Shown: positions 9,503 to 38,417 of the stretch, one piece after another
Layout of the letters: every line of letters begins with the position of its first letter
Numbering within the stretch: position 1 is the stretch's first letter
Assembly (NCBI GenBank): GCA_964411255.1
Contig: CAYPKD010000008.1
Coordinates: 1 to 59,172 of the forward strand
Direction of reading: 5' to 3'
DNA: 59,172 bases
Source of the DNA: an uncultured Gammaproteobacteria bacterium
GTDB lineage: Bacteria > Patescibacteriota > Patescibacteriia > UBA11705 > DATKZF01
Position numbers and translations under genes: made by a program
Notes under the pieces: model-generated
What the model saw: the letters and a program-made list of their open reading frames with translations, nothing else
Databases searched by the model: none
What the model was told of the DNA's origin: nothing

Positions 9503-9625
9503 TTGTTTCATTGTCTCATTGTTTCACTGAATTATTTTTGTTAAAAATTAGTATATTGAATTCATTGATTTGTTAACTATAGCATTTAATTAACAATGAA
9601 ACCATGAAACAATAAAGCCATGATC
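9503..9625. repeat. Inverted tracts of tandem octamers bracketing the comFC-murG spacer
   Basis: 9503-9526: TTGTTTCA TTGTCTCA TTGTTTCA. 9594-9625: CAATGAAA CCATGAAA CAATAAAG CCATGATC. The two tracts are roughly reverse-complementary (about 18 of 20 over ATTGTTTCATNGTNTCATTG). Confidence 0.65.
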
Positions 9626-10346
9626 AATTTCCGTGAGCCAACGCCAATACATTCACTTCCTTAACACCTGCCAGTTTTATCGCCTTTGCCGCCTCATTCA
9701 TTGTCTGTCCAGTCGTAAATACATCATCAAATAAATAAACAATTTCCGGTACTTTTTCAAACTGAGCGTAAAAAGCACCCTTCATGTTTTCAAATCTTAA
9801 TTCCCTATTCAAATTTGCCTGCTGTTTTGTATTTTTAATTCTTTGCAAGGATTTTGCATCAAAATTCATATTCAAATGCGTACTAAGATGCCTGGCAATC
9901 AACTCTGCCTGATTAAATCCCCGCTCTAAATAACGCTTTTTATGTAAAGGAACAGGAATCAACTGCTTTCCGTTCAGTTTATCATCTAAATCAGCCATGT
10001 CAACTGCTTGGGCAAACATATCTGCCAGCTTTTCAGCTACTTCTTCAACATAATCAAACTTCAAAGTACTAATAATCTGCTTAATAACTCCTTCATATGT
10101 ACCCATTACAAAAACAGTATTAAAATTAAAATTATGTCTGCACGAATCACATAGCTGATTTGAAACTGTTGCATGTTTATTGCAAACAACACAACTCTGA
10201 CCAACTGGAACTTCCAAACATTTTAAACAATCTTCACACAAAAAAGAACCCTCCTTTTTGCATCCTAAACACGTTTTAGGAAATATCAAATCAAGGAAGG
10301 GGGATATAAGTTTTTTTCCAAAATTTTTATTGCCAGTATGCGCCAT
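9624..10346 (-). CDS. comFC: ComF-family phosphoribosyltransferase-fold competence protein (ComFC)
   Basis: N-terminal Cys clusters CLGC...CEDC...CVVC...CDSC and the PRTase motif YLFDDVFTTGQT. The start overlaps the upstream ORF by 20 nt. Confidence 0.85.
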   Translation of the reverse strand: MAHTGNKNFGKKLISPFLDLIFPKTCLGCKKEGSFLCEDCLKCLEVPVGQSCVVCNKHATVSNQLCDSCRHNFNFNTVFVMGTYEGVIKQIISTLKFDYVEEVAEKLADMFAQAVDMADLDDKLNGKQLIPVPLHKKRYLERGFNQAELIARHLSTHLNMNFDAKSLQRIKNTKQQANLNRELRFENMKGAFYAQFEKVPEIVYLFDDVFTTGQTMNEAAKAIKLAGVKEVNVLALAHGN

Positions 10347-10920
10347 TAATTAGCCAACTTCCGTCTATTTTTACAAATTCGACCTTTATATTCTGTTCAA
10401 ATGTTTTTGATTCACTATTTCTTTTCTCTGTCCGCTGAGTGGTAACCACCATCACAGCCTTATCCTGACTATAACTCTCAGTCTTAACGATTGGCGCACT
10501 GGTCGTTACACCATAATATTCACCGTTAAGCGGATATTTTGTAGATAATTCTTTTTTTTGTCCAATAACCCACTGTTGCATCTGTTCTGTCAATATACTA
10601 TTAAGATCATCTAAATTTATAAAACCAGCTTGATTGGAAAAACTGCCAAATCTTTCTGCAAAAACCCTGGCCAATGTCTGAAGCTGCTCTTCATTTTTTT
10701 CTTCTTCAGTCATTTTTGGTAAATCAATTGTCTTTCTTTCAACCTCTGGGACGATCGGCTGCCTTGGCGGCGGTTCCTGTTCATTTATTACAGTTGGCGG
10801 TGTTACATCTTCTGGCTGTTGCCGAAAATATAAGAATCCTAAAACAATTGCAACCACCAGTACCACGGCGATCATAATTAAAATAATTATTTTTGCACCA
10901 ACTGATAAATTATCAAGCAT
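10327..10920 (-). CDS. Bitopic membrane protein, possible VirB8/PrgL-like component (tentative)
   Basis: One N-terminal TM, a Pro/Glu linker and a roughly 120-aa C-terminal globular domain ending VEFVKIDGSWLINGAYWQ. The call rests on this architecture and the operon context only. Confidence 0.5.
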   Translation of the reverse strand: MLDNLSVGAKIIILIMIAVVLVVAIVLGFLYFRQQPEDVTPPTVINEQEPPPRQPIVPEVERKTIDLPKMTEEEKNEEQLQTLARVFAERFGSFSNQAGFINLDDLNSILTEQMQQWVIGQKKELSTKYPLNGEYYGVTTSAPIVKTESYSQDKAVMVVTTQRTEKRNSESKTFEQNIKVEFVKIDGSWLINGAYWQ

Positions 10921-10963
10921 ATTCGATTAGATTATTTCTTAACTCAATATTATCCTTAAAAAA

Positions 10964-12880
10964 CTATTTTGTAAACTTTGTTTTAATTTTCTCTTCAGAT
11001 TCCAGCTGCCCCTTTCCTTGGGCCATTTCCTCTTCCATTTCTTTTCTCATTCGCTCGATCTCCAGCAATTGCTGAGGATCAGATGTAATCAATTGATCTT
11101 CCATTCCAGATGCAACCACTTTAATAGCAGCATGCCTGTCACCGGCAAAAAAAATGCCTTCACCTACTCCGCCTTCCAATAATAAATATCTTTCGCCTTC
11201 AGTCAGCTGGAAAGTTTCCTGTACCAAATCAATGGCTGCGGGTGTCTGCCGCAAAAGCAGCTGTAAAGCAGAATTCTGTAAAATAGCTTTCCCCTGATTG
11301 GAAACTAAAAAGTCATTTACATCCTGGGTGATAGTAGTCACACCCAAATAATATTTTCGACAACGCTTAACCAATGCGTATATAAAGTCAGCGGAATCTT
11401 TTCGTTTCATCAACCACCAAGCCTCGTCAATTACTAAAATCCTTTTCTTTAATTCAGATCGGACAACATTCCAAATATAATTAACAATGTTATAAATTGC
11501 CATCGGCCTTAATTCATCTTCTAAATCTCTGACAGAAAACACAATCAGCTGATTTCGAACGTCAACATTTGTAGGTGAATTAAATAATCCGGAAAAAGTA
11601 CCTGTTGTAAATTTTTGCAACCTAATAGCTAAATCAGCTCCTCCTTCCATTCCATCTAAAACGTCATATAAATCCTGCATTATTGGCGGATCAAATGGCT
11701 TAGTTAGATCGGTTTCCGGCGTAATGTCCTTTTTAGCAAATGTTTGAAGCAATGCTTGGTCAACAATTGAGTCTTCCTGGTATGATAAATCCCCGATCAT
11801 TAATCTTACCAAACCCTTTAATGTAATAACTGCGCTTCTAATAATATCTTCTGTAGAAGTCATCTCTCCGATAGGCCGAGGCAAGTCAAACGGATTAATT
11901 TTACTTTCAGAAGCCAGGGAAATATTGACATATGTTCCGCCGACAGCATCGCTTAAATGCTTATATTCCCTTTCTGGATCAATAATTATCACATCAGTGC
12001 CAAACATTAGCGTTCTCAGCACTTCAAGCTTAATAGCATAACTTTTTCCAGAACCAGAAGTGGCGAAAACCACTGCATTTGCATTTTGAAGCGAAAACCG
12101 GTCAAAAATTATTAAGCTATTATTATGCCTGTTAACTCCAAATAAAACACCTTTATCAGAAGTCAATTCAGCTGAAACAAAAGGGAAAGAAGAGGCGATT
12201 GGCGAAGAATTAAGGTTTGCGGTAATCATTATTTCATCATTGCCCAAAGGCACGGTCGAAACAAATCCCTGCTCTGCCTGATATAATACGCGTTTAGTAT
12301 ATACTAATTTTGAACCAAATACATCCTCTATATCAGCTGTCAGATCATCTAATTCCTTTAAACTGTTTGCATACAAAGTGGTATATAATGCAAATTGAAA
12401 AAACTTTTCAATACCCTGAGTCAGGTCATCTCTTAATTTTTCAATGTCTTGAAGAGCGGTTTCTCTCATCGGATCTCTGGGCGCGCCCTTTTCCGCATCA
12501 GCTGTCAGCTGTGCCCTTAAAACTCCAACTTTATTCCTCAATTGTTTTAATACAATTTCAGACTTTAATGGATAGAAAAACATGCTAATATCTAAAGTGG
12601 CATTATAATTGATAATTGGAGCAAACCAGCCAACACTAATATATCTTGGATAGGTTAAAACAAACAATGTCCTCAAATATTTGCCTCCAAGCCGCAGATG
12701 GTCAGGCTTAACCTCCATTGCGCTTGGGGCAATCAAATCTAAAATTGAAACGACCCCTCTTTTATAGGAACGCCTTTCTTCAATCAATTTCTTAGTCTTC
12801 TCTGCTTTAATTTCCTCAGGTTTTTTCTGTTGAGGTAGCTCTTTTTTTTCTTTTGGCTCCATGCCAATAGGTTTTATCAT
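10964..12880 (-). CDS. virB4: VirB4/TrbE-family T4SS ATPase (central and C-terminal portion)
   Basis: Walker A FATSGSGKSYAIK, Walker B ILVIDEAWWLM, upstream motif LRLGGKYLRTLFVLTYPRYISVGWF. Confidence 0.9.
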   Translation of the reverse strand: MIKPIGMEPKEKKELPQQKKPEEIKAEKTKKLIEERRSYKRGVVSILDLIAPSAMEVKPDHLRLGGKYLRTLFVLTYPRYISVGWFAPIINYNATLDISMFFYPLKSEIVLKQLRNKVGVLRAQLTADAEKGAPRDPMRETALQDIEKLRDDLTQGIEKFFQFALYTTLYANSLKELDDLTADIEDVFGSKLVYTKRVLYQAEQGFVSTVPLGNDEIMITANLNSSPIASSFPFVSAELTSDKGVLFGVNRHNNSLIIFDRFSLQNANAVVFATSGSGKSYAIKLEVLRTLMFGTDVIIIDPEREYKHLSDAVGGTYVNISLASESKINPFDLPRPIGEMTSTEDIIRSAVITLKGLVRLMIGDLSYQEDSIVDQALLQTFAKKDITPETDLTKPFDPPIMQDLYDVLDGMEGGADLAIRLQKFTTGTFSGLFNSPTNVDVRNQLIVFSVRDLEDELRPMAIYNIVNYIWNVVRSELKKRILVIDEAWWLMKRKDSADFIYALVKRCRKYYLGVTTITQDVNDFLVSNQGKAILQNSALQLLLRQTPAAIDLVQETFQLTEGERYLLLEGGVGEGIFFAGDRHAAIKVVASGMEDQLITSDPQQLLEIERMRKEMEEEMAQGKGQLESEEKIKTKFTK

Positions 12881-12881
12881 A

Positions 12882-13592
12882 TTAAGTATTATCTACGTTT
12901 AATTTATTAACGTCCACTAACACTTGTTGTTCTGCAATTCCAGGATTATACACATTATAATATAATTCAATTAAACTTTGTGTGTCTAAAATTACTGATT
13001 TTAATCCCATGCTATTCAAATTTCCCTGAATATGCCCCACTCTTTGCATTAATTCACGGTAATATTTATCAAACTTTTCCTTTTTTATCTTAATCACCTG
13101 GCCAGGTGTAAATAACTCGGACATTTTTGAAAAAAATCCTTTTGGCTTGCCAGCTTCTGCCAAAGGACTGAAAGGCACCACTAAAAAGAATTTTTTACTC
13201 ATAATATCTCCGATTTCAACCAATTCATTAACAAAAGAAATATAATTATCAATTTGTTTTTTCAACAATTCATTGGTTACTTCTTTTTCATGCTCTCTTA
13301 ATTTATTAAGATAAACGTCAATATTTAATTTTCTTGATTGAACTACTATCTGAACAGGGAATTCTAAATAATTCAAAAAACCAACATAAGCACTAACTAT
13401 TGCTTCCTGTTCTTCTTCTGACTTTAAGGCAAAATTCACGCTGGAAACCATTATAACAGATCGCAATGTGCTGTCTTTTAAAATAACTGTATCATTTTTT
13501 ATTTCAGCAATATCTAAAAAAAGCTGAGTACTTTCAGAAACACTTGTTTTTTTCAATTTATCACTTTGCATTTCTCGTTTCTTTTTTGCCAT
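12882..13592 (-). CDS. VirB4 N-terminal-domain-like protein (separate ORF)
   Basis: The segment FLDIAEIKNDTVILKDSTLRSVIMVSSVNFALKSEEEQEAIVSAYVGFLNYLEFPVQIVVQSRKLNID resembles the first domain of single-chain Gram-positive VirB4 proteins. Its stop TAA is separated by 1 nt from the next ATG. Confidence 0.6.
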   Translation of the reverse strand: MAKKKREMQSDKLKKTSVSESTQLFLDIAEIKNDTVILKDSTLRSVIMVSSVNFALKSEEEQEAIVSAYVGFLNYLEFPVQIVVQSRKLNIDVYLNKLREHEKEVTNELLKKQIDNYISFVNELVEIGDIMSKKFFLVVPFSPLAEAGKPKGFFSKMSELFTPGQVIKIKKEKFDKYYRELMQRVGHIQGNLNSMGLKSVILDTQSLIELYYNVYNPGIAEQQVLVDVNKLNVDNT

Positions 13593-13602
13593 AATATATT
13601 AA

Positions 13603-14115
13603 TTATTTTTTCTTTACCGGCTGCCCCAAAGATACTGGAGCTGGACTGGATGCCTGAACTTCACCAGCATACATACCTCCTGTATTAACAATTAAAGTTA
13701 AATCTGATAAGCGTGAACCAGTAACCGGTTCTTTTCTAGCTATGCTTAGTTTTGGTTTTTCCTCAATATCAGACTTAACTTTTTCATGCATCTGCATAAT
13801 ATAAGCTTCTTTATTCCAAATACGCAGCCTTGGGCGCAACAATGTCTGAACAAAATTTAATAAGAAGAAATGAATCGGTCTGCCATTAATTTTTGCAAAA
13901 GCTAAAGTTCCAAATATGCCAAAATCAATAATTCCGCCGGCAATCAAAGAAAGCAGGCTGCCAAAACGATAAAGCAAAAATCCAATTAAAAAGGCTGCTA
14001 AAATTAAAATAAACTGCCTGACTGTTATCGGGCCGATAATTTTATCTTCAACATCTATAAATTGTGGAACAATATACTTTGCTAATGCCATAAATGTAAT
14101 AAGTATCTGTTTCAT
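13603..14115 (-). CDS. PrgI/VirB3-like small membrane protein
   Basis: VPQFIDVEDKIIGPITVRQFILILAAFLIGFLLY followed by a second TM. It lies immediately upstream of the VirB4 ORFs. Confidence 0.7.
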   Translation of the reverse strand: MKQILITFMALAKYIVPQFIDVEDKIIGPITVRQFILILAAFLIGFLLYRFGSLLSLIAGGIIDFGIFGTLAFAKINGRPIHFFLLNFVQTLLRPRLRIWNKEAYIMQMHEKVKSDIEEKPKLSIARKEPVTGSRLSDLTLIVNTGGMYAGEVQASSPAPVSLGQPVKKK

Positions 14116-14163
14116 CCGTTGTGATCAGTTGATCTGTTTTTTCCTAATTAATAATTATATAAA

Positions 14164-15153
14164 TTAAAACTGCATTTTTTCATTTGACTCCATTATTGCC
14201 TGAAATTCTTCATATGTCATAATTTTTTCACCTTTTTCAGTTTTTTCATTTATCACTTCTTCAATTGGTTTGTTCTGCTTAATGCTTTCATAGCCGATAT
14301 TTAAATACATTTGATAAACAGGCGACTGCTGCCAGGCATTGACCCCGTCAACTTTTTTTTGAATTGACTCTTCTGCTAACAGGCCAATCCTTTCCATCAA
14401 TTCACCCATTATTTCTTCTTTATTTGATCCGAGCCGGCGCAAATTAACCAAATCCATTGATCTTAACTCATCAACCGGCCCAACCAAAGACGGGCCAAAT
14501 GTGACATCTTGTAAAACCGGCTTTTGCTCATCCAAACCGCTTAAAGTCCTTCTTGATACCTCCTGAGCTGGGGCAGCTACTGAAGATTTTTGCACAGCTG
14601 GCACTGATTGCTTTGGCTGCTTTGGCTCGTATTCTCCGCGAATAATAGCCAGCCGTTTTTTTTCAACCTCTCTTAAATATTTTTTTATTGTGCTTAAAAT
14701 AGTCTCTGCCTTTTGCTCGTCAAATCCTATTCCACCAGCAACTGCTGAAGCGGTCAGCATATATTTAACTTCAATATCTTTTCTCACTCCCCGTAACCTT
14801 GATATGATTACACTGGTTAATTTTACATTGTCATATTGTGCAGCTGAAATCTGTAATTCATCAATGATCTTTTTTGCTATTTCTTCCAGCATCTGTTGTT
14901 CAATATCCCGTTTTTCCAGCGGCATTTCTTTAACCACCTCCACTTCTGATTTTTTTTCTTCCTTTACCACTTTTTTTTCTTCTTTTTTTAATTTTTTAAC
15001 TTCTTTTGGACTTAATAACTTTACAGCTTCATCATAAGAATAAAATTTTCCCTGATAATAATACTTAAACTCGCCTTTTTCATCTCTAACCAAAACAAAT
15101 TCCTCTGCTTTAGGACTAAATTCTACATTTTTTTTACTCTTTTTTTTTTGCAT
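14164..15153 (-). CDS. Hypothetical protein in the T4SS-like operon
   Basis: 329-aa ORF with a Lys/Glu-rich N-terminus. Co-directional with short gaps. No motif recognised. Confidence 0.6.
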   Translation of the reverse strand: MQKKKSKKNVEFSPKAEEFVLVRDEKGEFKYYYQGKFYSYDEAVKLLSPKEVKKLKKEEKKVVKEEKKSEVEVVKEMPLEKRDIEQQMLEEIAKKIIDELQISAAQYDNVKLTSVIISRLRGVRKDIEVKYMLTASAVAGGIGFDEQKAETILSTIKKYLREVEKKRLAIIRGEYEPKQPKQSVPAVQKSSVAAPAQEVSRRTLSGLDEQKPVLQDVTFGPSLVGPVDELRSMDLVNLRRLGSNKEEIMGELMERIGLLAEESIQKKVDGVNAWQQSPVYQMYLNIGYESIKQNKPIEEVINEKTEKGEKIMTYEEFQAIMESNEKMQF

Positions 15154-15159
15154 ACTATA

Positions 15160-16635
15160 TCACGCCCATTTAAATTTCTTCTCAGCCATATCATAAAATG
15201 CCAGTCTACTAAATTTCTCTTCTCCTCGTCTGGTATAATGTGTATCAAAATGAGTGGCTATCCTGGCTGATTCCTCTTCAGTTAATTCTAAACGCTCTTG
15301 CAAAATATACTTTAACATATATACCACAAACTGTGGCTGTGCTGGATTAACCACGAAATCATTTACCAAATTAGCTTTTCCAATACGATTTAAATAGCTG
15401 GTTAAATAATCCCGATATCTAATATCTTCCATTAAAAGTTTTATAAATCCTCCCTTTTCAACCAAAATCATAAGTGAAGCGATTGTTTTTATTTTGTCTT
15501 TTTTCAAAAATCCGACTTCCAGTTCATCAGATATTTTTTTCAAATCATTATTAGTCGCCTCTAACAATTTTTCTTTCATTATTTCAATCCGACTTTGCTC
15601 TTCTTTGCTGCCCACATACAATTCAAAAATGTCTTTTGGCGGCGGAGCTTTTTCTTTTTCAACTTTTTCATGTTCTTTAACAAACGCTTCAATGTCTGCA
15701 ACATCCTTATCTGTAAAAGGAAATATGGCAATATCTTCTAAATTTTTTCTTTGTGCATCATAAAAGAAATTTCGGATTGCTACATATAAATCCAATGCCA
15801 TGTCTAAAAGCTGACCTTGTTCCCGGTCTAATTTTTTTGCATTATGGCTTTCAGCCATGTACTTAGCTTTTTTTATGGAAGATACAGTGCCTTCAACTCC
15901 GACGATGGCAATAAAATCCTTAAGCCAATTTCCAATTGTCGGATCAACCATTTGGTTATTAACCTCAATTTTATCTCTGGTTAATATTTCCTGATTATTA
16001 ACTAATTTCTGGAGTATACTCATCTGATATTCTTCTTTTTCTAAAAATAACATTACCACCAGCGCATTTAGATCCAATTTTGTTCGAAAATCAGCCCATT
16101 TAAGCATATCAACCACCTGATCGCTAAAAATTGCACCTATGTCTTTTGATTCTTTTTCAGGATCGCGCAACTCAAGCGGTGGCGCTTTTTCGACTTCTTT
16201 TTTTGCCTCAACTTTATCTTCTAAAATTTCATCTTCTGGTGATTTTAATTGCTTAACCATTCCCTCTTCTTTTTTTAATTCTTTTTTAAAAGCATCCATC
16301 ACTTCATAATAGTCTTCCGGTTTTGAGCCTAAACTTGTTAAATATTTACTGACCTCGCCGTTAAAATATTTATCTAAAATTAAAAATTTCCTCCCTACTA
16401 TCTCTTTAGCAATGTCTTTTGCTTTCTGAGGCGCCATTTTTAGTTTGCTTTTGAATTCTTTATCTAAATCATTGACTTTTATTTTATTAAATAAAACATC
16501 ATTAATAATATCGCGAAATATTAAACTCTTCTTTGCAGGCAATTTATACTTATTAATCAAAGCAACATTAATCCGCGCTCCATAATCAGATTCATACACG
16601 CTTTGTGCCAATTTATTTTTTAATTTATCTGCCAT
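15160..16635 (-). CDS. Hypothetical protein in the T4SS-like operon
   Basis: 491-aa ORF with 5-6 nt gaps to both neighbours. No motif recognised. Confidence 0.6.
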   Translation of the reverse strand: MADKLKNKLAQSVYESDYGARINVALINKYKLPAKKSLIFRDIINDVLFNKIKVNDLDKEFKSKLKMAPQKAKDIAKEIVGRKFLILDKYFNGEVSKYLTSLGSKPEDYYEVMDAFKKELKKEEGMVKQLKSPEDEILEDKVEAKKEVEKAPPLELRDPEKESKDIGAIFSDQVVDMLKWADFRTKLDLNALVVMLFLEKEEYQMSILQKLVNNQEILTRDKIEVNNQMVDPTIGNWLKDFIAIVGVEGTVSSIKKAKYMAESHNAKKLDREQGQLLDMALDLYVAIRNFFYDAQRKNLEDIAIFPFTDKDVADIEAFVKEHEKVEKEKAPPPKDIFELYVGSKEEQSRIEIMKEKLLEATNNDLKKISDELEVGFLKKDKIKTIASLMILVEKGGFIKLLMEDIRYRDYLTSYLNRIGKANLVNDFVVNPAQPQFVVYMLKYILQERLELTEEESARIATHFDTHYTRRGEEKFSRLAFYDMAEKKFKWA

Positions 16636-16640
16636 AAATA

Positions 16641-19148
16641 TTATGTGTTATCATCAACTGTCTTTTGCATCTCTGGCGGCAAACTGCTATAAAATGATTT
16701 ATTATTTTGTATATTTTTAAATTCTGCTTTCATGTTTTTCTGAACCTCAGGACTGGTAACCTGAGCAGGCACGCTTGGATCACCCTGAGCCATTTTTGAT
16801 TTTAATCCTAATACAGCTTTTACAATGTTATCATTTCCAGTTTTCATTAATCCTGATAATTTACTGGTTGAAATATTTTGAGCAATTATCATTCTTTGAG
16901 CATCATCACCTTTTGTAAAATTACCTTTGTCATCCACTTTCAAAGCGTCTGCCAAGGCCCGGACATCTAACTTACTTGTATGATTTCCCAAACCTTCCAA
17001 GTCTGTGCCAAAAGCATCAAATGGATTTTCAGTAATCTTTGCTTCAACGCTTTTGAAATTCGTCTTATTAAATGCTTCAAGTGCATCCAGTTCTGCAGCT
17101 TCATCAGTTCCTTCAGCCGGAGACAAATCCCTTAATTCAGCTAATCTACCTGTAGGAACAACATTCCCCGCAGCGTCTTTTGTGGTCATGCCTTCTTTCA
17201 TCTTTTGCGCTTCAGACAAACCTTGCTTGGCATTTTTCGCAAAATCTCCGCCTTTGCCAAATATTCTTTTTAGTTCAGCATCAAAATTTTTGCCAAATGC
17301 CTGAGATAAAGTCAACATAGCATTTCCGTCTTTATAAAAGCTGGCAGCTTGGTCACGCAAATTTGTCTTATTCTTATCCTGATCGCCGATCAGCCCTTTT
17401 CTGCCTTCATGAGTTGAAAGATCATATTTAGCAAATGCATGATTTTTATTAACTTCATCTTCAACAGCCTTTTCAGTTGCAGTGCCTTTTAAGCTTCTAT
17501 ATACCTTCATCATATCTTCCTGATTGTCTTCATTAATGGCGCCTCCTTTAATTGCATTTATTAAATGAGCAGCAGCTTTTTCCATATTCGCTTCTTTAGT
17601 CATTACTTTTGCAGATTTTTTCGCATCATATTTTGAATCTTGCAGTTGCTTAAATTCCTTGCCTACTCTGGCCTTGGCTGCTTCATTCGAAGCACCCTTG
17701 GATCTGGTTACCTGGCTTCTGACATCAGATGCTAATTCTGGAGCGCCCATTGTGGCCAATCTCTTTAATCCTGCTAAAGTTCCAGTAGCGATGCCAACTG
17801 TCACTCCGGCAACGGCTCCTAAGCCACCCAAGCCCATTTCTTTAAATTCTTCCCTTCTTCTTCTATATTCAGCCCTGCCTCTTCTGGCAGCAGCTACTGG
17901 CGCTCGAAACGGAGCTTTTACTGCGCCGGCCACCGCTTCCCTGGCCACGCCTGCCGTTCTTTCCCAGCCTCTTTCAAATTTTGCTCCAAAGGCAGAAACC
18001 CTTTCTGCACGCCGTTTTTGTAAAACACCTTTTGCTGCCGCATATCTTTCACCTACAAACTTGGCGCCAGTTGCGCCATAAGCAGCTCCCTTAACTGCAC
18101 CCAATACTTTACCGCCAACAGCAGCTCCAACAGCGCCACCCATTTGTTTTGTTATTACGACTGCTCCGTATAATAATGCCACACCCACTGCAAATTGGGC
18201 CATGTTTGGCATGGTGGAACCAATAGCCTTAGTTCCTTCCTGAAGTTGTTTACCAGTTACACCTGATTTTTCTTGCGCTGATTTTGTAACTTCCTGCGCT
18301 TCTTGACTAACACCGCCATCTGCCTGCATCATTAATAATGCCAGCCAAAGAAAAAAAGCTAATATCGGACCAGTAGCTACCCAATTTCCAAATTTCTGCC
18401 ACCACTGCTTAGCCAATGATTGAGTGAACGGCAATAAAGATCCAACAAAGGCAAATGGAGATAAAATAATTAATATCCATAAAAATGCAATCCTGGCCAA
18501 TAAAATTACAAGCATTAAAATGCTAACCATTAACACAAAGAAAAACATGAATGCTGCTAATGCTAAGCTTAAAGCAATTTTCCAAAAATTTATTTCTTCC
18601 AATTGTCCGTCCTTTGCCTTCATCCAGGTATCCATTTGTAAGCCATTGATTAAGTTTGCCCCAGCTGAAGCCTGAAACCCATTTACAAAAGTAAGCATTA
18701 CAATTTGTCCAAAATCAATAATCAAACCACAAATCAATTTACTGAAATTAATTGCGACCGCAGCAAATATTACCTTTGGTAAAAGCGACTTAATCGAATA
18801 TTTTTCAATACGTAAAATAGTGGCAAAAGCAATGATCAACAAAATTACAACAAAAAACATGTTGCAAATATCACGAATAATAGTCCAGCCGGTAACAACT
18901 CCTGGATTATCTACAAATTCCTGAAAACCAGCAACAGCAATCACCAATGAAAACACCTGCATGGTTAACCAGCCTAAAATATATGCAATGCCGTAAAACA
19001 TTAATGCAAAAACCTGGCCGAAAAAATCACCGACAGCGCCAGCATAAACAGGAATATAAATTCCAATGCCAATTATCAAAAATAAAATGACGAGCACTGA
19101 AATAATTCGTGTTCTTGTTGGCTTGAGGGATTTGAAAAATCCTCCCAA
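16641..19148 (-). CDS. VirB6/TrbL-like polytopic membrane protein with long C-terminal extension
   Basis: About 7 hydrophobic segments in the first 330 aa, then an Ala/Gly/Arg/Lys-rich stretch and a roughly 350-aa soluble tail. The track start is a TTG that itself lies inside a GGGAGG string, so the start is uncertain. Confidence 0.65.
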   Translation of the reverse strand: MGGFFKSLKPTRTRIISVLVILFLIIGIGIYIPVYAGAVGDFFGQVFALMFYGIAYILGWLTMQVFSLVIAVAGFQEFVDNPGVVTGWTIIRDICNMFFVVILLIIAFATILRIEKYSIKSLLPKVIFAAVAINFSKLICGLIIDFGQIVMLTFVNGFQASAGANLINGLQMDTWMKAKDGQLEEINFWKIALSLALAAFMFFFVLMVSILMLVILLARIAFLWILIILSPFAFVGSLLPFTQSLAKQWWQKFGNWVATGPILAFFLWLALLMMQADGGVSQEAQEVTKSAQEKSGVTGKQLQEGTKAIGSTMPNMAQFAVGVALLYGAVVITKQMGGAVGAAVGGKVLGAVKGAAYGATGAKFVGERYAAAKGVLQKRRAERVSAFGAKFERGWERTAGVAREAVAGAVKAPFRAPVAAARRGRAEYRRRREEFKEMGLGGLGAVAGVTVGIATGTLAGLKRLATMGAPELASDVRSQVTRSKGASNEAAKARVGKEFKQLQDSKYDAKKSAKVMTKEANMEKAAAHLINAIKGGAINEDNQEDMMKVYRSLKGTATEKAVEDEVNKNHAFAKYDLSTHEGRKGLIGDQDKNKTNLRDQAASFYKDGNAMLTLSQAFGKNFDAELKRIFGKGGDFAKNAKQGLSEAQKMKEGMTTKDAAGNVVPTGRLAELRDLSPAEGTDEAAELDALEAFNKTNFKSVEAKITENPFDAFGTDLEGLGNHTSKLDVRALADALKVDDKGNFTKGDDAQRMIIAQNISTSKLSGLMKTGNDNIVKAVLGLKSKMAQGDPSVPAQVTSPEVQKNMKAEFKNIQNNKSFYSSLPPEMQKTVDDNT

Positions 19149-19226
19149 AGCATTCTGGATTTTATGCCTGATATTCAGATTTTTTTTAAATCTTAATAAA
19201 ATCTAGGCGCAATCCTAGTTATTTTA

Positions 19227-19255
19227 ATTATAACACAAAATTACGATAGCATCCA
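19227..19255 (-). promoter_or_regulatory. Possible extended -10 promoter of the T4SS-like operon
   Basis: The minus strand reads TGTTATAAT (TGn plus TATAAT). The -35 (TGGATG) is weak. Confidence 0.35.
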
Positions 19256-19287
19256 AAATAAAATTTTAACTTATCAACAGTTAAATG

Positions 19288-20559
19288 TTATAAAAATATG
19301 CCATTTTGCTTAGAAATCTTCGCATAATATTCACTGCTCTCCTTTAATTGTCTTTGCTTGGTTTCAAAATCAACTGATGCCAATCCAAATCTGGGTCTAT
19401 AACCTTCTGCCCATTCATAATTATCTAGCAGCGACCAGTAAAAATAACCGCGAACATCTACTCCTGCTTTTATCGCATAATAAATCTCTTCCAAATGCTC
19501 ATGAATAAACTGCTTTCTAAAACTGTCATCTTCCGTGGCAATACCATTTTCTGTAATGTATATTGGCTTCCCGTAAGTTGATAAATCAACTAAAACTTCA
19601 TAAATACCGTGCGGATGCACCAACCAGTTCATATCAGTCATTCTGCGGCCTTCAACTGCAGGGTCTTCCTGCATTGATAAAGATCGTTTGCCAAAACGGT
19701 ATTTTTTTTTCAATCTAACCTGAAAATAATAATTTATACCAAAAAAATCATGGTATTTAGGCCGTGATAAAATATAAAAACCATGATTTGAAAATTTGTA
19801 CAAATAATATTGCTGAAGCTGATCAAATAATTTGTGTTTTATATAATTTGAATATGCCTGCAAAGAATTGGCAATTCCCACTTCAGCTTGTTTATTAAAA
19901 TTTTGTTTCACAATTCTATGAATCAAAACGTATGCAGATTTATGCGCTTTTGCTAAATTCCAAAATACTCGAAATCCTAAAAGAGTCTTTTTCTTCATTG
20001 GCGGCCACCAGCCATGAAAATAACTGCAAAACACATAAACATCTGGCTCATTAATCGTTACCCAAAAATCAACCAAGTCACCTAAATTTTCCACTGCATA
20101 TTTTACATATCTAAGAAAATATTTTTTATTCTTTCCTTTTTCCCAGCCTTTTTTTAACATAAACCAGGCTGGATTTGTAAAATGATGAAGCGTCAGCATT
20201 ATTTTAATGTTACGTTTCTTCAGGTCTTCAAGAACATTTCGATAATGCTTTATTGCCTGGCTGTCAAATTTTCCCTCTTCTGGCTCAATTCTTGCCCATT
20301 CAATTGACAAACGATGGCAATTATTATTCATTTTTTGGATTAAATCAAAATCTTCCTTGTAGCGATTAAAACTATCGCAAGATGTTCCCACATCAGGGAT
20401 TTTTTCCAAAGCCTGCTTCACCCAAGGAACTTTATCCTTATATTTTCGAAAAGTCTCATGCGACCAGTCATTATTTTGACAGTCACCCTCGATTTGATGA
20501 GATGAAGTGGCTGTGCCCCAGAGAAAATTTACTGGGAATTTTATAAATCGTTTTTGCAT
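19288..20559 (-). CDS. Glycoside hydrolase family 1 beta-glucosidase
   Basis: FLWGTATSSHQIEG, acid/base TINEP and nucleophile YITENG. Confidence 0.9.
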   Translation of the reverse strand: MQKRFIKFPVNFLWGTATSSHQIEGDCQNNDWSHETFRKYKDKVPWVKQALEKIPDVGTSCDSFNRYKEDFDLIQKMNNNCHRLSIEWARIEPEEGKFDSQAIKHYRNVLEDLKKRNIKIMLTLHHFTNPAWFMLKKGWEKGKNKKYFLRYVKYAVENLGDLVDFWVTINEPDVYVFCSYFHGWWPPMKKKTLLGFRVFWNLAKAHKSAYVLIHRIVKQNFNKQAEVGIANSLQAYSNYIKHKLFDQLQQYYLYKFSNHGFYILSRPKYHDFFGINYYFQVRLKKKYRFGKRSLSMQEDPAVEGRRMTDMNWLVHPHGIYEVLVDLSTYGKPIYITENGIATEDDSFRKQFIHEHLEEIYYAIKAGVDVRGYFYWSLLDNYEWAEGYRPRFGLASVDFETKQRQLKESSEYYAKISKQNGIFL

Positions 20560-20667: not shown

Positions 20668-23295
20668 TCAATTACTCTTCGCTAAATTAAATATTTTCAG
20701 CTTCCCCTTCTTTAAAAGATATAAAAATCCTAATCCTGCGCTTAACATGGCGGCAACAACAGTTAAAATTATTTTAACCGGCAATGTTTTTTTCATTGGC
20801 ACTTGTTCAACAACGGTTGCTCCTAATTCCTGCTCAGATGGCAAAACAGAAATATCTTCGTTCAACCTTGGGTAAAGACAAACATTTTCTTTATATGGTA
20901 ATAAGATACCGCTGACAAATACTCTTTGCCCGTTTTCTAGATCTTTTGTATTTAAACCTGCGTTTTTCCTAAAACAAACTGGTAAATCACCCTGTTCAGT
21001 TACTAAATTAAACCCGCTTGCTAATTTTTCTGAAATTTCTCCGTCTGCTGCGATTAAAAAACCAATCAAGTTTTGCTCTTCTTGGAAACTGAATTCTTTT
21101 AGATCTGCCAAACTCTGTCCCTCAACAACATTAATATCTTCAGCAGAACTTATTTTTATTTGAGACATTTCTTTTTTTGCAAATTTGCCTTTAATCTTTA
21201 CTCTCTGCCCGATTTGCAAACTGGGCCAATCAGCCTTATAAAAATACGCTTCAACTGCCAGATCCTCACTTTGCAAATACATTCTTTGTTTCAAAAATAA
21301 TCCTGGATTAACTGTAATCACTCCTTCAAATAAAACTAAATCGTCATCTTTTAGCTGACCAATATTTTCCTTTGTTAATGCTATATATTCAATTGGATTC
21401 TCTGTTGTAATTTTCTTTTCAGAACTTTTTTTTGTCAAGCTGGTTAATTTTTTCTCTGCCTCTTTTTTTTCAGAAATATTCTCATCTTCTTCAGCTATTT
21501 GTTGTACAATATTTTCTGTACCAGGTGTAGGTAAAGTGGTTAATTTCCAAAAACCAGTAGAATCCTTGACCAAAGCGTATGGCAAGACAACTTGTTTATT
21601 ATCAAAATCAACCATTGTTTTATCAAAAGATCCGTAAATCATTTGGTCTAAAAGCTGATCATCTTTTGAATAAAGCTGGACCATGTCGCCGGCATTATTT
21701 AAATTTTTTGTTTTTACTATCATATAAAATTTTGATGGAATAATGCCTTTTAAATGAAACTTTGTGCCGCTCCCCTCTTGCAGATAACAATCTGTCACTT
21801 CAATGTCTAAATCAGAAGAATTAAAAATTTCAATCCATTCTGTCTGGCCTGAAAATGGCTGGCTTACAACTTCATTAATAAAAAGCTTTCCTACTAAATT
21901 AATTGCTTCATTATTTGATGCTTCATTTTCCAATTGCTCGGTTTGTTCTTCAATTTCATCATTTTCCTCCAAAATTTGTTCATCTTGCTCAGCTGTTTGA
22001 ATCAAAGCAATTTCATTTTCCAATCCTGGTGTTTGTGTATATGTAAAACTCCAGTCATTAGCTGAGTTTGTATCAATATCTGAAACTCTGGCCAAAGACA
22101 TATTTTCTTCAATATCATCGCTCGTTTGCCAGGCGCTGCTGTCATCATTTTCAAAATCATTATTAGCCAGCCAATGGTCTGCGGTTGCCAAAAAGTTTGC
22201 CTGGTTGCTGCTTTTTGTAAATTTACCGTCATTGTTTGACCAAATTAATACGTCCTGCGTTTGATACTCAGCATTACGTAAAACCAATATATTATCTGTA
22301 CCAGTTAAATTTTTTTCTAAATTTAATAAAATAAAATCTCCATTATCATAAACTTCATCCTGATCTATTTCAAAAATCAAACTTTCTCCCTGAAATAGCT
22401 TCCAATGATTAAAATCACCCTGTTCAATTACTTTTAATTCAACCCAATCCTGAGATTCTTTAAATGCCACTTCATTTATCATTAATTTGCCCAAGACTTC
22501 CTCAACGACTTCTTCATCTTCAGGTTCTGACTGCTCATCATCTGAGTCATAATCATCAATAATAACATCATTAGAAGTGAAAGTTATATCTTCAGAAGCA
22601 AAATCTTCAATAATGACATCATCTGACGCATATTCAATAATTATCTCATCATCAGATGCAAATTCGTCCTCATCATCATCTAATTCATTTTCTAAAAAAT
22701 TCTCTGCTTTTGGCGTTGCAAAATCAGATACATTGTCATCTAAATTTTGTGAAACTAAACTTTCTGTCCAGGCATCTGGCAGATCTCCTGCTTCAATATC
22801 TTTTTTTCTAATCATTGAAGTTTTCCATTCATTATCTCCGAAAAAAGGAGCATCTCCCCCTCCAGCAACATCAATCAATTCATTTTGAGAATTATAAAGT
22901 TTGATTTGCAAACTGCTATTACTCAGGCTAACGTCACTGTCAATTAAATCTGGCTCAATATTTAAAACGGAATTTTCTTTATCAAAATTACTTATAACAA
23001 AAAATCCTCCTGCTTCAATTTCCAATCCTTGCGAAATTTCAAGCATTACTTTTTCTTCTCCGCTGCTTAATTTTGTTAAATACCATCCGCCTAAATCAAT
23101 ATTTTCGTTCGTTAAGTTTTTTAATTCAATAAATTCATCACTAGCAGAATAGCTAGAGCCTGCCCAGGCTAATTCATTTATTACAACAGTAATTCCCTGT
23201 GATTGAGCATTAAAACCAAATAGAAATGAAAAAACACAAAGTAATATTCCAATCAAGGCCAGGATAAATATTTTTTTATTTAAATCATATTGCAT
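20668..23295 (-). CDS. Cell-surface protein with three lamin-tail-domain (LTD) repeats, an acidic repeat linker, OB-like C-terminal region and a C-terminal TM anchor
   Basis: LTD signatures VVINELAWAGSS...EFIELKN, LMINEVAF...DWVELKV and LFINEVVSQPFSG..EWIEIFN. N-terminal signal sequence. C-terminal TM LPVKIILTVVAAMLSAGLGFLYLL. Confidence 0.8.
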   Translation of the reverse strand: MQYDLNKKIFILALIGILLCVFSFLFGFNAQSQGITVVINELAWAGSSYSASDEFIELKNLTNENIDLGGWYLTKLSSGEEKVMLEISQGLEIEAGGFFVISNFDKENSVLNIEPDLIDSDVSLSNSSLQIKLYNSQNELIDVAGGGDAPFFGDNEWKTSMIRKKDIEAGDLPDAWTESLVSQNLDDNVSDFATPKAENFLENELDDDEDEFASDDEIIIEYASDDVIIEDFASEDITFTSNDVIIDDYDSDDEQSEPEDEEVVEEVLGKLMINEVAFKESQDWVELKVIEQGDFNHWKLFQGESLIFEIDQDEVYDNGDFILLNLEKNLTGTDNILVLRNAEYQTQDVLIWSNNDGKFTKSSNQANFLATADHWLANNDFENDDSSAWQTSDDIEENMSLARVSDIDTNSANDWSFTYTQTPGLENEIALIQTAEQDEQILEENDEIEEQTEQLENEASNNEAINLVGKLFINEVVSQPFSGQTEWIEIFNSSDLDIEVTDCYLQEGSGTKFHLKGIIPSKFYMIVKTKNLNNAGDMVQLYSKDDQLLDQMIYGSFDKTMVDFDNKQVVLPYALVKDSTGFWKLTTLPTPGTENIVQQIAEEDENISEKKEAEKKLTSLTKKSSEKKITTENPIEYIALTKENIGQLKDDDLVLFEGVITVNPGLFLKQRMYLQSEDLAVEAYFYKADWPSLQIGQRVKIKGKFAKKEMSQIKISSAEDINVVEGQSLADLKEFSFQEEQNLIGFLIAADGEISEKLASGFNLVTEQGDLPVCFRKNAGLNTKDLENGQRVFVSGILLPYKENVCLYPRLNEDISVLPSEQELGATVVEQVPMKKTLPVKIILTVVAAMLSAGLGFLYLLKKGKLKIFNLAKSN

Positions 23296-23518: not shown

Positions 23519-24100
23519 TTATAAACTAGGCTTTGTTGATAGAAAAAAATATGGATATTCTTTCACATTCTTTACTAATTGCCATCGTTCCTTTACCGGT
23601 CCATTTTTCATCACATCCAATGTCTTTTGAAGATATTCGTCATCTTTAATCAAACTGACTCTTGAATCATCTGCCCACATTTTAAGTTTTTTTCCGTTAT
23701 CTATTTTTTTTGCTTCTTCTTTAAAAAACCAAATAATCCTTCGGGCATGAGACCGGTTAACTTTTTCATTTTTTTCAAAAAGCTCTATCATCGGCTGCTT
23801 CTCATCATCTTTTGCCTCTGCCCGCAGATTGTCCAAAATCTCATAGGATATTCGCTTTTTAAATTCCCCATAAACAGAGACTGGATTATCCTTATCTTTT
23901 GGCAGCTGAAAAAGCCAGTAAAAATGATTGGGCATAATCAAGTATGCGATATTTTTTACATTCATTTCCTTAGCCACTTCTTTTAAATTTCTAATCATCA
24001 AATCCAGATATACTTGATTAACAAATAGATTTTTTTTGCCAGCAACACTGCTTGAATAAAAGTACGTGCCGCCAGGCTGTTTTTCTATAAATTTTGGCAT
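23519..24100 (-). CDS. IS200/RAYT-like (HUH Y1 transposase fold) protein, probably degenerate
   Basis: YLIMPNHFYWLFQ aligns with the MPNHvHLL HUH motif, with the second His replaced by Tyr. The C-terminus ...LDVMKNGPVKERWQLVKNVKEYPYF resembles YIhxNPVkagLV..YpwSS without the Tyr. Confidence 0.6.
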   Translation of the reverse strand: MPKFIEKQPGGTYFYSSSVAGKKNLFVNQVYLDLMIRNLKEVAKEMNVKNIAYLIMPNHFYWLFQLPKDKDNPVSVYGEFKKRISYEILDNLRAEAKDDEKQPMIELFEKNEKVNRSHARRIIWFFKEEAKKIDNGKKLKMWADDSRVSLIKDDEYLQKTLDVMKNGPVKERWQLVKNVKEYPYFFLSTKPSL

Positions 24101-24214: not shown

Positions 24215-24580
24215 TTAAAATTTCTTCTTTCCCTTCAATGTCAGAATACTAGAGGCAAGAATATTTGCTATTTCAGTTACTTCTTTTAATAATTGTTCGG
24301 CCTTTTCTTGATTAGCTTTTTTAGCATCCCTTAATAATTCCAACCAAAACTTACTTTCATTTGCAGACTTCAAAGAATGATTAAAATAATTTGTAAAATC
24401 TCTTTTCGTACTTCCTGCTTGGGCTTCAATAAAATTTGCACCAATACTTGTTATGCTTCTTAATAATTGCCTACTAATCACTTGTACACCCAAATCTTTT
24501 TTATTCAGGACATCAATGAAATTGATACAATTAATTGCTAAACTATATGTTCTTTTTTTTATATCTTTTTTATTTTCCAT
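24215..24580 (-). CDS. Four-helix-bundle protein (23S rRNA IVS protein / Avd family)
   Basis: 121 aa. ANFIEAQAGSTKRDFTNYFNHSLKSANESKFWLELL is the family signature. Confidence 0.85.
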   Translation of the reverse strand: MENKKDIKKRTYSLAINCINFIDVLNKKDLGVQVISRQLLRSITSIGANFIEAQAGSTKRDFTNYFNHSLKSANESKFWLELLRDAKKANQEKAEQLLKEVTEIANILASSILTLKGKKKF

Positions 24581-28966: not shown

Positions 28967-29046
28967 AATTAAAGATTTGATTAATAAGCTAAAATTAGCG
29001 ATATCCTTCTCGCTTAATACTAAATATAAATTTCTTTGTTACTTGT

Positions 29047-29089
29047 ATTATACTAAATGATATAATTTTCAAATATTTATTTATCCACA
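29047..29089 (-). promoter_or_regulatory. P1 promoter region: TGTGGATAA, 28 nt, TATAAT
   Basis: On the minus strand, TGTGGATAA (29089-29081) lies 28 nt upstream of TATAAT (29052-29047). No good -35 hexamer. Confidence 0.5.
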
Positions 29090-29090
29090 A

Positions 29091-29116
29091 ATAAAAAAGA
29101 GGCCCATAACCTCTCT
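29091..29116 (-). terminator. Terminator after paralogue P2
   Basis: Stem AGAGG/CCTCT followed by a T-run on the minus strand. Confidence 0.5.
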
Positions 29117-29132
29117 CTTTTTTTTATAATTT

Positions 29133-31571: not shown

Positions 31572-31683
31572 ATTGTTTAAAGTTTTATTAATAATTAAGT
31601 AAGATTATATTTAATTTATTAAGCTAAAATAAACGAATAATGTCGTTTTTCAATTGACAAAATAACATTTAACTTGTGTATTT

Positions 31684-31726
31684 ATTATACTAAAATACAA
31701 AATTTGCTGATATAGACTTATCCACA
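31684..31726 (-). promoter_or_regulatory. P2 promoter region: TGTGGATAA, 28 nt, TATAAT
   Basis: Minus-strand TGTGGATAA (31726-31718), exactly 28 nt, then TATAAT (31689-31684). Confidence 0.5.
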
Positions 31727-31773
31727 TAAAAAAAAGCCCAAAAGGACCTTTTTCTATATAAACTAATTTTCTA

Positions 31774-35547: not shown

Positions 35548-35631
35548 AAGAATAATAAAAATTAGTTATTAAAATAACTTAGGCAATTTTGCCTTTTATA
35601 AATATATAAAAATATTAGTTTTCTATCTTTA

Positions 35632-35671
35632 ATTATACAACATTTTATCGATATTAGTAAAGTTATCCACA
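35632..35671 (-). promoter_or_regulatory. P3 promoter region: TGTGGATAA, 25 nt, TATAAT
   Basis: Minus-strand TGTGGATAA (35671-35663), 25 nt, then TATAAT (35637-35632). Confidence 0.45.
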
Positions 35672-35675
35672 TATC

Positions 35676-35702
35676 AAAAAAGAGGCTATTTTTTTGCCTC
35701 TT
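35676..35702 (-). terminator. Terminator after P4
   Basis: Stem AAGAGGC/GCCTCTT with a 9-nt loop and a T-run on the minus strand. Confidence 0.6.
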
Positions 35703-35716
35703 TTTATCTATAATTT

Positions 35717-37399: not shown

Positions 37400-37402
37400 A
37401 AA

Positions 37403-38050
37403 TTATTTTTTATTTTTTAATATTTCAATTTCTTCTTTTATTCCCTCATTATTTGGCTCAAACTGCAAAGCGATTTCATAAAATTCAATTGCCTTACTGA
37501 TATTTCCCATTTCTCTATAAGCCAATGCCATCATTTTTGGCAATTCTGAATCATTTGGCATAAACTGCCTGCCATATTCAGCGATTGGTATGAATTCTGG
37601 CAATTTTTCCCTTTTAACATCAATATAAATAGTTAATAAATTTCGATACGCGCTGATCTGCTTCACATTATTTTCTATAATTTTTTTATTTGCTTGTTCA
37701 GCTTTATCAAAATTCTGGGTTCTTACATACAAAGAAGCCAGATTCATATAATATAAATTGTCATTTCTAACTTCAGTACAGCGTATATAATATTCTATTG
37801 CCCGCTCTAAATCTCCCTCATTTTCATAAGCCTCAGCAATAAAAAATAAAACATCTTTGTTATGTAAATCCTGCTCTAATTCTGTTTTTAAAATTTTAAT
37901 CTCATCTGTGTCATTTTGTTCATACACAGCAAAAGATTTTATATATGACTTTTGCTCACCTACTTTTACCCACCAGACTATACTTGCAAAACCTAAAATA
38001 ATTAGGATTATTAGTAAAATAAATAGGATTTTTTTTACTTTTTCATTCAT
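37403..38050 (-). CDS. Membrane-anchored TPR-repeat protein
   Basis: N-terminal TM followed by repeated A..YE..GD...AI.YY-type 34-aa units. There is a 3-nt gap to P4. Confidence 0.7.
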   Translation of the reverse strand: MNEKVKKILFILLIILIILGFASIVWWVKVGEQKSYIKSFAVYEQNDTDEIKILKTELEQDLHNKDVLFFIAEAYENEGDLERAIEYYIRCTEVRNDNLYYMNLASLYVRTQNFDKAEQANKKIIENNVKQISAYRNLLTIYIDVKREKLPEFIPIAEYGRQFMPNDSELPKMMALAYREMGNISKAIEFYEIALQFEPNNEGIKEEIEILKNKK

Positions 38051-38147
38051 AATATACTTTTTTATGTAATAAAATTTTACCAGAAATATCGAAAAAAATC
38101 AAATATAATGGAAAAAAGGGGAAACTTTATTTTCAGTGTTTTGACGT

Positions 38148-38177
38148 GGTAAGTCACTTTGGCCAAAGTGACTTACC
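38148..38177. other. Perfect 13-bp hairpin
   Basis: GGTAAGTCACTTT-GGCC-AAAGTGACTTACC. Confidence 0.7.
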
Positions 38178-38194
38178 ATTCGGATATTTTTAGG

Positions 38195-38367
38195 TGGAAT
38201 CGTTGTTGAATAATAGGTACGATGAGCGAGACATGTACTCGGGGAATCCCTAGCCTACGCCAAGGCTTCGGCTCGCAGGCAGATTCCCGCTTGGCAGTCT
38301 AGTTTCTCCTGCTCAAAAATGCTGAGGGAAAACTCTGTTTCCCCGCCCATATTCGTTGCAGGAAAAC
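38195..38367. ncRNA. Candidate structured RNA of unknown family; strand unresolved
   Basis: A roughly 170-nt stretch that is visibly far more G+C-rich than its flanks. Nested stems include GGGAATC/GATTCCC (38242-48 with 38283-89), a GGC-UUCG-GCU tetraloop hairpin, GGGAAA/TTTCCC and GTTTCC/GGAAAC. No credible ORF. Confidence 0.3.
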
Positions 38368-38393
38368 AAAACCCCGCCAAATGGCGGGGTTTT
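38368..38393 (-). terminator. Strong terminator after P5
   Basis: AAAACCCCGCC-AAAT-GGCGGGGTTTT, an 11-bp stem. Confidence 0.8.
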
Positions 38394-38417
38394 GACTATC
38401 TAATCTGTTAAAACAAA

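Follow-up and report, generated by a model that had tools for sequence, protein, structure and literature searches.

A relaxase-less chromosomal type IV secretion locus that ends in comFC on a patescibacterial contig

Introduction

What does a type IV secretion system (T4SS) do when no relaxase is encoded near it and the last gene of its cluster is comFC? The question is raised by a minus-strand cluster on contig CAYPKD010000008.1 (assembly GCA_964411255.1), a stretch of 59,172 nucleotides that is filed under an uncultured Gammaproteobacteria bacterium and placed by GTDB in the Patescibacteriota; this whole stretch is called the window below. Between positions 19148 and 9624, the cluster encodes VirB6-, PrgI/VirB3-, TrsD-, VirB4- and VirB8-like proteins together with two accessory proteins, and then runs into a gene of the ComF family. 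The cluster is real; it comes from an ultrasmall genome of the Patescibacteria class ABY1 and is ordinary for that lineage. Very probably it is the ABY1-type version of the chromosomal T4SS common to most Patescibacteria. Its descent from monoderm (MPF-FATA) conjugation machinery, without a relaxase in cis, is well supported. As to what the apparatus moves, we tentatively favor nucleic acid traveling inward.

The cluster type, the comF adjacency and the idea of DNA import were all published between 2023 and 2025. Wang et al. (2023, Cell, PMC10633639) described a Gram-positive-like T4SS that is indispensable to a saccharibacterium's epibiotic growth and in which neither a relaxase nor a coupling protein is recognisable. 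Quiñonero-Coronel et al. (2025, Microb Genom, PMC12102498) then surveyed 3,035 Patescibacteria genomes. The survey reports that Patescibacteria VirB4 proteins form a monophyletic clade related to MPF-FATA, that TrsD, PrgI, VirB6 and VirB2-like proteins are widespread, that VirB8 homologues are detected almost only in ABY1, and that relaxases occur in only 103 of the 3,035 genomes. ABY1 T4SS loci are said to carry comF, recG and radA commonly, and the authors propose that DNA or other macromolecules are taken in from hosts. Thus, the comFC linkage and the import hypothesis of a preliminary description of the window both stand in that survey already. A 2025 FEMS review (PMC12857230) restates this, and tubular structures, possibly T4SS pili, were seen at a parasite-host interface (bioRxiv 10.64898/2026.06.21.733656).

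Organization and conservation of the cluster

The cluster consists of eight co-directional minus-strand open reading frames (ORFs), one fewer than first counted, and all eight are intact. In the order of transcription, they encode a VirB6-like protein (p835), p491, p329, PrgI/VirB3, a TrsD-like protein, VirB4, a VirB8-like protein (p197) and ComF, where p835, p491, p329 and p197 are named by their length in amino acids (aa). Successive genes are separated by 5, 6, 48, 10, 1 and 43 nt, in agreement with the range of 1-48 nt first given. The end of the VirB8-like gene overlaps the start of comFC by 20 nt (10327-10346; ATGGCGCATACTGGCAATAA), again as first described; the same 20-nt overlap is present in the closest relative. 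A terminator upstream of comFC had been named as a finding that would speak against the linkage; no terminator-like site was found at the p197/comFC junction. Judged from this arrangement, comFC probably shares a transcript with the cluster as its final gene. Transcription likely begins in the 139-nt intergenic region 5' of the cluster (19149..19287, minus strand). Sequence patterns there include a TG-n-TATAAT motif, with its TATAAT at 19232-19227, and, at 19218-19203, a small hairpin that leads into a T-rich stretch; given the motif and the hairpin, the operon may start within this gap.

For comparison, a VirB4 scan of 185,579 species genomes gave 293 relatives, of which the best 80, with 67-86% VirB4 identity, were kept. 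Gene families of the locus were assigned by iterated hidden Markov models (HMMs) over the ORFs of these related loci. The order VirB6-like, (p491), p329, PrgI, TrsD, VirB4, VirB8-like is conserved across the 80 loci; the relatives' accessory proteins are ~30% identical, versus the 67-86% of VirB4. All 80 loci come from CPR (candidate phyla radiation) metagenome-assembled genomes, as judged by organism name or by conserved gene order. Most records bear the names of CPR groups, which are Falkowbacteria, Uhrbacteria, Magasanikbacteria, Jacksonbacteria, Veblenbacteria and 'Parcubacteria/Patescibacteria group'. Many other records carry different names, mostly 'uncultured Gammaproteobacteria', and show the same gene order. 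Three relatives (GW2011_GWA2_40_23, GWC2_42_12 and GWA2_43_13) are listed under GTDB class ABY1 in the supplement of PMC12102498, and GW2011_GWA2_40_23 shares the order of the window from the lamin tail domain gene upstream of the cluster through murG downstream of it.

Translocon proteins

VirB4 (10964..12880, minus strand; 638 aa) is an ATPase of the monoderm MPF-FATA (CD1110) type. It scores 346.7 bits with NF045971 (conju_CD1110), above the cut-off of 325, over model positions 185-729 of 752, and it matches P-loop_TraG at 3e-26. Both Walker motifs are preserved (Walker A, ATSGSGKS; Walker B, ILVIDE at residue 481). The gene before it (12882..13592, minus strand) encodes a TrsD-like protein of 236 aa, a polypeptide of its own that is, by its profile matches, a homologue of VirB4's N-terminal part. 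These matches are to positions 93-233 of NF045975 (VirB4_plasma, 1.5e-10), to NF041427 (TrsD, 2.1e-5) and to positions 20-89 of NF045971; within the family, 63 of 79 members match PF11130 (TraC_F_IV). Thus, the earlier phrase "VirB4 in two pieces" is anatomically apt, but no gene has been disrupted. Because the TrsD-like gene is a separate ORF in 79/79 related loci, TrsD and VirB4 are a conserved pair rather than a broken gene.

The small membrane protein encoded at 13603..14115 (minus strand) is PrgI/VirB3-like, as had been proposed: PF12666 is matched at 4.9e-8 with 33.8 bits, above the cut-off of 27. Two hydrophobic segments lie within residues 25-74, and the gene is kept in 77 related loci.

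The last of the T4SS genes (10327..10920, minus strand) encodes p197, a bitopic protein of 197 aa with an N-terminal transmembrane (TM) helix, a Pro-rich linker and an NTF2-like domain. Its AF2 model has a pLDDT of 84.8 overall and above 90 in the NTF2-like domain, and it predicts a VirB8-like fold. The best Foldseek match in the PDB is CagV (6iqt; E 2e-5, TMt 0.72), and further matches are PrgL (7aed), TcpC (3ub1), TraH (5aiw), Brucella VirB8 (5jbs) and R388 TrwG. The earlier VirB8/PrgL-type assignment, made from architecture, is therefore supported by a comparison of the predicted structure in which VirB8 homologues come out on top. Since the NTF2 fold is generic, gene context also counts toward the assignment, and a VirB8-like gene directly follows virB4 in 76 related loci. 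Profile searches of PDB sequences with the TrsD and p197 family alignments returned nothing meaningful (TM or linker noise). A 'TolB-like' iterated HMM had drifted onto the TM/linker region of p197 and was discarded.

The first gene of the cluster (16641..19148, minus strand) encodes p835, a polytopic membrane protein that is probably VirB6/TrbL-like, judging from its topology, its position and weak family matches. Six to seven hydrophobic segments fall in residues 1-335, followed by a hydrophilic C-terminal extension of ~500 aa, as in the 'extended VirB6' type. The earlier VirB6/TrbL call fits this topology and position, but the window protein itself has no Pfam match, and the family support is weak: PF04610 (TrbL) is matched by 4 of 42 members, at best with 1.2e-5. 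A further weak match (E 1.6e-3) is to NF046089, the Gram-positive CD3337/EF1877 mobilome membrane protein. The family is syntenic in 43 related loci. A PDB profile search with the p835 family alignment gave coiled-coil noise only, and PHROGs contained no match for p835 or p197.

The slot after the VirB8-like gene

The ComF-family (ComFC/GntX-like) protein is encoded at 9624..10346 (minus strand). Its sequence is clearly, though divergently, homologous to the family, matching TIGR00201 at 2.1e-35 (122 bits, under the cut-off of 233.55) and NF008616 (GntX) at 1.2e-35 (123 bits, under the cut-off of 304). The domains recognized are a double zinc ribbon (DZR_2, 2.3e-7) and Pribosyltran, and the sequence contains four CxxC motifs and a phosphoribosyl pyrophosphate (PRPP) loop, DDVFTTGQT.

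Among the related loci, 67 are informative for the slot downstream, meaning that enough sequence is present past the VirB8-like gene. The virB4-...-comFC adjacency pointed out in the preliminary description is conserved in 25 of these 67. In a rough neighbor-joining tree of VirB4, the comFC state appears in three separate clades. The slot is occupied in ~29 of the 67 by a dsbA-like gene and then radA, by radA alone, or by a dsbA-like gene alone at a contig end; in ~10 by genes for a small TM protein and a Cys-rich protein with a T4SS_pilin domain; and in the remaining few by other genes. Whether comFC, dsbA-like or radA, the gene in the slot is always co-oriented with the T4SS genes. The spacing between the VirB8-like gene and comFC ranges from -50 to +184 nt across the 25 comFC loci, so the overlap itself is not conserved. 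Beyond comFC, gene order breaks down: 14 different families follow it in 23 loci. Therefore, the VirB8-like/comFC junction is kept more tightly than background gene order. In addition, comFC and radA, two distinct genes of transformation and recombination, share the slot in ~80% of the loci, so that a functional tie of this T4SS to DNA handling, as read from gene linkage, is more likely than chance adjacency.

The alternative occupants are found in sister ABY1 clades, for example in loci L055 (12817-15073) and L010 (12546-14559). In the pilin-type slot, a small TM protein is followed by Cys-rich proteins with the T4SS_pilin domain (PF18895). The DsbA-like protein may serve disulfide formation in the Cys-rich pilins of these sister clades.

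Accessory proteins

The two genes between the VirB6-like gene and prgI encode Lys/Glu-rich soluble proteins without TM segments, and the earlier description of both as unknown still stands: profile searches on the two, and Foldseek on p329, gave no identity. The first, p491 (15160..16635, minus strand), is lineage-specific. No match was found for it in Pfam, NCBIfam, PHROGs or PDB profile searches, and all its homologues are 'hypothetical' proteins from Patescibacteria. An ORF of the p491 family lies at the same position in ~40 related loci; in further loci, the iterated-HMM matches land on p329-type ORFs.

The second, p329 (14164..15153, minus strand), is directly 5' of prgI in 73 related loci. 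Its AF2 model is all-helical (pLDDT 74.8) and has no Foldseek match in the PDB with E <0.5; the sequence has no match in Pfam, NCBIfam or PHROGs. The family is large: at 50% identity it comprises 2,608 clusters, 1,798 of them at E <1e-30, and no Pfam model covers it. Its members are typically 450-550 aa long; conserved among them are a 'ISRLRxVRxD...GG(L/I)G' motif in the center and, at the C terminus, a helical domain of ~110 aa. A domain common to p329 and p491 was considered (the HMMs cross-match the same ORFs, and the p329 HMM matches p491 at 3e-6), but it was dropped at an hhalign probability of 5%.

What the apparatus may transport

The VirB6-like channel protein, PrgI/VirB3, the VirB8-like protein, and VirB4 with its separate TrsD-like N-terminal segment make up the membrane translocon. 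In the mechanism that we propose, this apparatus would sit at the contact with a host cell and conduct macromolecules. In ABY1, the substrate would most likely be nucleic acid moving inward, and ComFC would take over the incoming single-stranded (ss) DNA in the cytoplasm. In the sister clades, RadA, whose gene occupies the same downstream slot, could take the acceptor role of ComFC. Inward transfer is favored because of the slot linkage and because ComFC and RadA act on incoming ssDNA, not on exported DNA. Although it is the reading we prefer, inward transfer of nucleic acid at host contact, with delivery to ComFC or RadA, is offered tentatively, with slightly less than even confidence. A more specific form is unlikely: here the ABY1 T4SS would import host DNA independently of ComEC, ComFC or RadA would dock to VirB4/TrsD, and p329 and p491 would replace the coupling protein. 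ComEC, ComEA and DprA were not found in the 59-kb window.

Several considerations weigh against inward transfer. T4SSs are overwhelmingly exporters, and ComFC is known to partner with ComEC and ComFA rather than with a T4SS. Overlaps and read-through are common in the gene-dense, co-directional genomes of CPR bacteria without functional coupling. The comFC of the window falls under the curated ComF cut-off (122 versus 233.55 bits), and ~10 related loci have pilin genes in the slot instead of comFC or radA. Finally, ComEC, ComF and DprA are not fitness genes in Southlakia epibionticum (PMC10633639; PMC12857230). Because the T4SS of this organism is essential and its com genes are dispensable, the essential role of the T4SS there is not exerted via the Com pathway; the authors suggest protein export or another T4SS role (PMC10633639). 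DNA import as an inferred function of the window's cluster was thus overstated at first, when set beside this one tested patescibacterium.

The same S. epibionticum result argues for a second reading, in which the same T4SS exports protein or builds a contact or pilus structure, and comFC is an incidental, co-transcribed housekeeping neighbor. This is assumed for the T4SS of Saccharibacteria. It would also suit the VirB2-like T4SS_pilin genes that one clade of related ABY1 loci has in the downstream slot, the large Ig-like and lamin tail domain surface proteins encoded nearby in the window, and the variable spacing (-50 to +184 nt) between p197 and comFC. However, chance fits poorly with comFC or radA in the slot of ~54/67 loci and with the break in synteny past comFC. 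Moreover, no candidate effector or chaperone genes were recognised, and a search with an HMM of the T4SS_pilin-containing family from the related loci found no VirB2-like pilin gene among the window ORFs of at least 40 aa. Export or contact is the main rival, a possibility to be taken seriously, but a doubtful one.

In a third reading, the cluster is what is left of an integrative conjugative element that has decayed, its relaxase, coupling protein and integrase being lost or lying outside the window. Its VirB4 is indeed most similar to the conjugative CD1110/CTn2 family, TrsD + VirB4 has a precedent in the pGO1 subclass (PMC12102498), and a weak IS200-like Y1 transposase match (E 0.0065) lies at 23519-24100. 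Pfam scans of window ORFs of at least 90 aa, leaving aside a few antisense to longer genes, found no relaxase, VirD4, VirB11 or integrase, as first reported. The lack of a coupling protein in 59 kb says little by itself, since VirD4 homologues are present in 2,918 of 3,035 Patescibacteria genomes and mostly lie far from virB4 (PMC12102498). A decayed element is made very improbable by the other evidence. Eighty divergent CPR loci on chromosomes retain the core order, none of the eight ORFs is broken and the Walker motifs are preserved, and relaxases are rare among Patescibacteria (103/3,035 genomes in PMC12102498). Around the cluster, the only att-like direct repeats in the window are AT-rich chance matches, so that the repeat borders that would have pointed to a mobile element were not seen; no tRNA gene adjoins the cluster; and its composition matches that of its surroundings (~33% GC for the window). 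The flanks are of a housekeeping kind, with murG downstream and dnaX and sigma factors at a greater distance. In full, the downstream side carries murG, tRNA-Lys, a gene for a P-type ATPase and one of DivIC/FtsB type (septum formation initiator); encoded upstream are a GH1 glycosidase and a lamin tail domain protein, sigma factors, five surface proteins of very large size and DnaX. Together, the flanks, the composition, the absence of mobility genes and repeats from the window and the order kept in 80 loci uphold the earlier view of chromosomal machinery rather than a conjugative element.

Least credible of all is true homology with the ComB DNA-uptake T4SS of Helicobacter pylori, since, although the two share VirB3, VirB4, VirB6 and VirB8 roles, neither has VirD4 or VirB11 nearby, and H. 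pylori transformation also needs ComFC (PMC12857230; PMC10633639), the ComB likeness first suggested is refuted as a matter of descent by a VirB4 that is of MPF-FATA/CD1110 type and above that cut-off but far below those of TIGR00929 (VirB4_CagE, 114 versus 643 bits) and PRK13898 (41 versus 1050), by the lack of VirB7, VirB9 and VirB10 genes in the cluster, as expected for a monoderm envelope, and by the fact that ComB moves double-stranded DNA across an outer membrane, which the window organism lacks, so that a functional analogy is what may be left.

Neighboring genes

Nearly all genes up to ~53.4 kb of the window are on the minus strand. Upstream of the cluster, a gene at 20668..23295 (minus strand) encodes a membrane-anchored lamin tail domain surface protein (PF00932 LTD, 3.6e-22, in two stretches) with hydrophobic segments at its N and C termini and no PHROGs match. 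It had been described as lamin-tail/OB-like; the lamin tail part holds, but the OB part is sub-threshold (tRNA_anti-codon, E 0.009). Homologues 5' of the VirB6-like gene occur only in the six closest loci. Thus, this protein is a clade-specific upstream neighbor, which may have no functional link to the T4SS. Between its gene and the cluster lies a GH1 beta-glucosidase gene (19288-20559), which lacks a counterpart in all 80 related loci and is therefore probably a recent insertion in the window genome.

The 193-aa ORF at 23519-24100, 4.4 kb upstream of the cluster, is the one with the sub-threshold IS200-like Y1 transposase match, which is the sole mobility-related hint in the window. Next to it, at 24215-24580, is a gene for a 23S-rRNA-intervening-sequence (IVS) protein, a four-helix bundle (PF05635). 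In seven related loci (L008, L012, L013, L028, L047, L059 and L074), similar-looking ORFs interrupt the T4SS operon, where they lie between the p329 homologue and trsD. Their sequence and placement suggest a small gene, mobile or selfish, that can reside within an operon. Small ORFs between p329 and prgI in eight related loci were considered as VirB2 pilins, a candidate that was rejected; the sequences look like 23S-rRNA-IVS/four-helix-bundle proteins.

Five consecutive genes for very large surface proteins occupy 26540-42107. Four of the products have Ig-like matches (Big_5, Big_13, Big_1 and others), and the fifth, of 1229 aa, has no Pfam match. The paralogous genes at 26540-28966, 29133-31571 and 31774-35547 share an upstream module at the intergenic sites 29081, 31718 and 35663. 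Its elements are, in order, a GC hairpin and its T-run, a 9-mer that is exactly DnaA-box-like (TGTGGATAA, gene strand), a spacer of ~20-30 nt and a TATAAT box, which reads TAGTATAAT in two of the three paralogous genes. From its sequence, the module looks like a shared promoter/operator and not like a replication origin.

GC skew is negative from position 1 to ~53 kb and changes sign at ~53381-53639, where gene orientation also flips: dnaX is on the minus strand, and an ABC-2 transporter is on the plus strand. A replication origin or terminus could lie at this switch (~53.4 kb), some 35 kb away from the T4SS. No DnaA-box cluster, dnaA or dnaN was found near it.

Significance

Before that of Patescibacteria, no T4SS had been shown to be essential to its owner's growth. 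If the coupling to comFC and radA in ABY1 is true, nucleotide-auxotrophic epibionts would feed on host nucleic acid, or recombine with it, via a repurposed conjugation machine. The window adds no new kind of system, but the system is biologically important. What is added here are locus counts for comFC, dsbA-radA or pilin genes in the slot that follows the VirB8-like gene; a p197-comFC junction that is conserved while the genes past it vary; support from a predicted structure for the VirB8 assignment; and two conserved families of accessory proteins, p329 and p491.

Comparison with known systems

The archaeal Ced system (CedA/CedB) shares a VirB4/HerA-type ATPase with the cluster and imports DNA from another cell across a single membrane. 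However, it belongs to another lineage, the window VirB4 scores 41 bits with NF041017 (CedB), for which the cut-off is 700, and CedA has no homologues here. The H. pylori ComB system is likewise a functional analogy only, a T4SS without VirD4 and VirB11 that imports DNA, with ComFC acting downstream in the cytoplasm. Unlike the cluster, ComB is an MPF-T system of a diderm, has VirB7/9/10, crosses the outer membrane only, and has no operon link to comFC.

Closer are the conjugation systems of the MPF-FATA class (pGO1 TrsD/TrsE, CTn2 CD1110 and pCF10 PrgH-L). In common with these, the cluster has a CD1110-type VirB4, a TrsD split off as in pGO1, PrgI, a VirB8-like fold near those of PrgL, TraH and TcpC, and no outer-membrane core. 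In contrast, the window lacks a relaxase and a coupling protein, an oriT, an adhesin, a peptidoglycan hydrolase and an integrase, and the cluster is chromosomal and vertically inherited, whereas MPF-FATA conjugation genes are carried on a mobile element.

The closest match is the T4SS of Patescibacteria itself (PMC10633639; PMC12102498), specifically its arrangement in ABY1. Differences are that the window cluster has no VirB2-like pilin or VirB1-like hydrolase, that it does not adjoin dnaA/dnaN, and that it has the conserved p329 and p491 between the VirB6-like protein and PrgI, which are unnamed in the available part of PMC12102498. What the two have in common is VirB4 with a separate TrsD, PrgI/VirB3, a probable VirB6 and a VirB8-like protein, the lack of a nearby relaxase, a chromosomal site and, in ABY1, the co-location with comF and radA.

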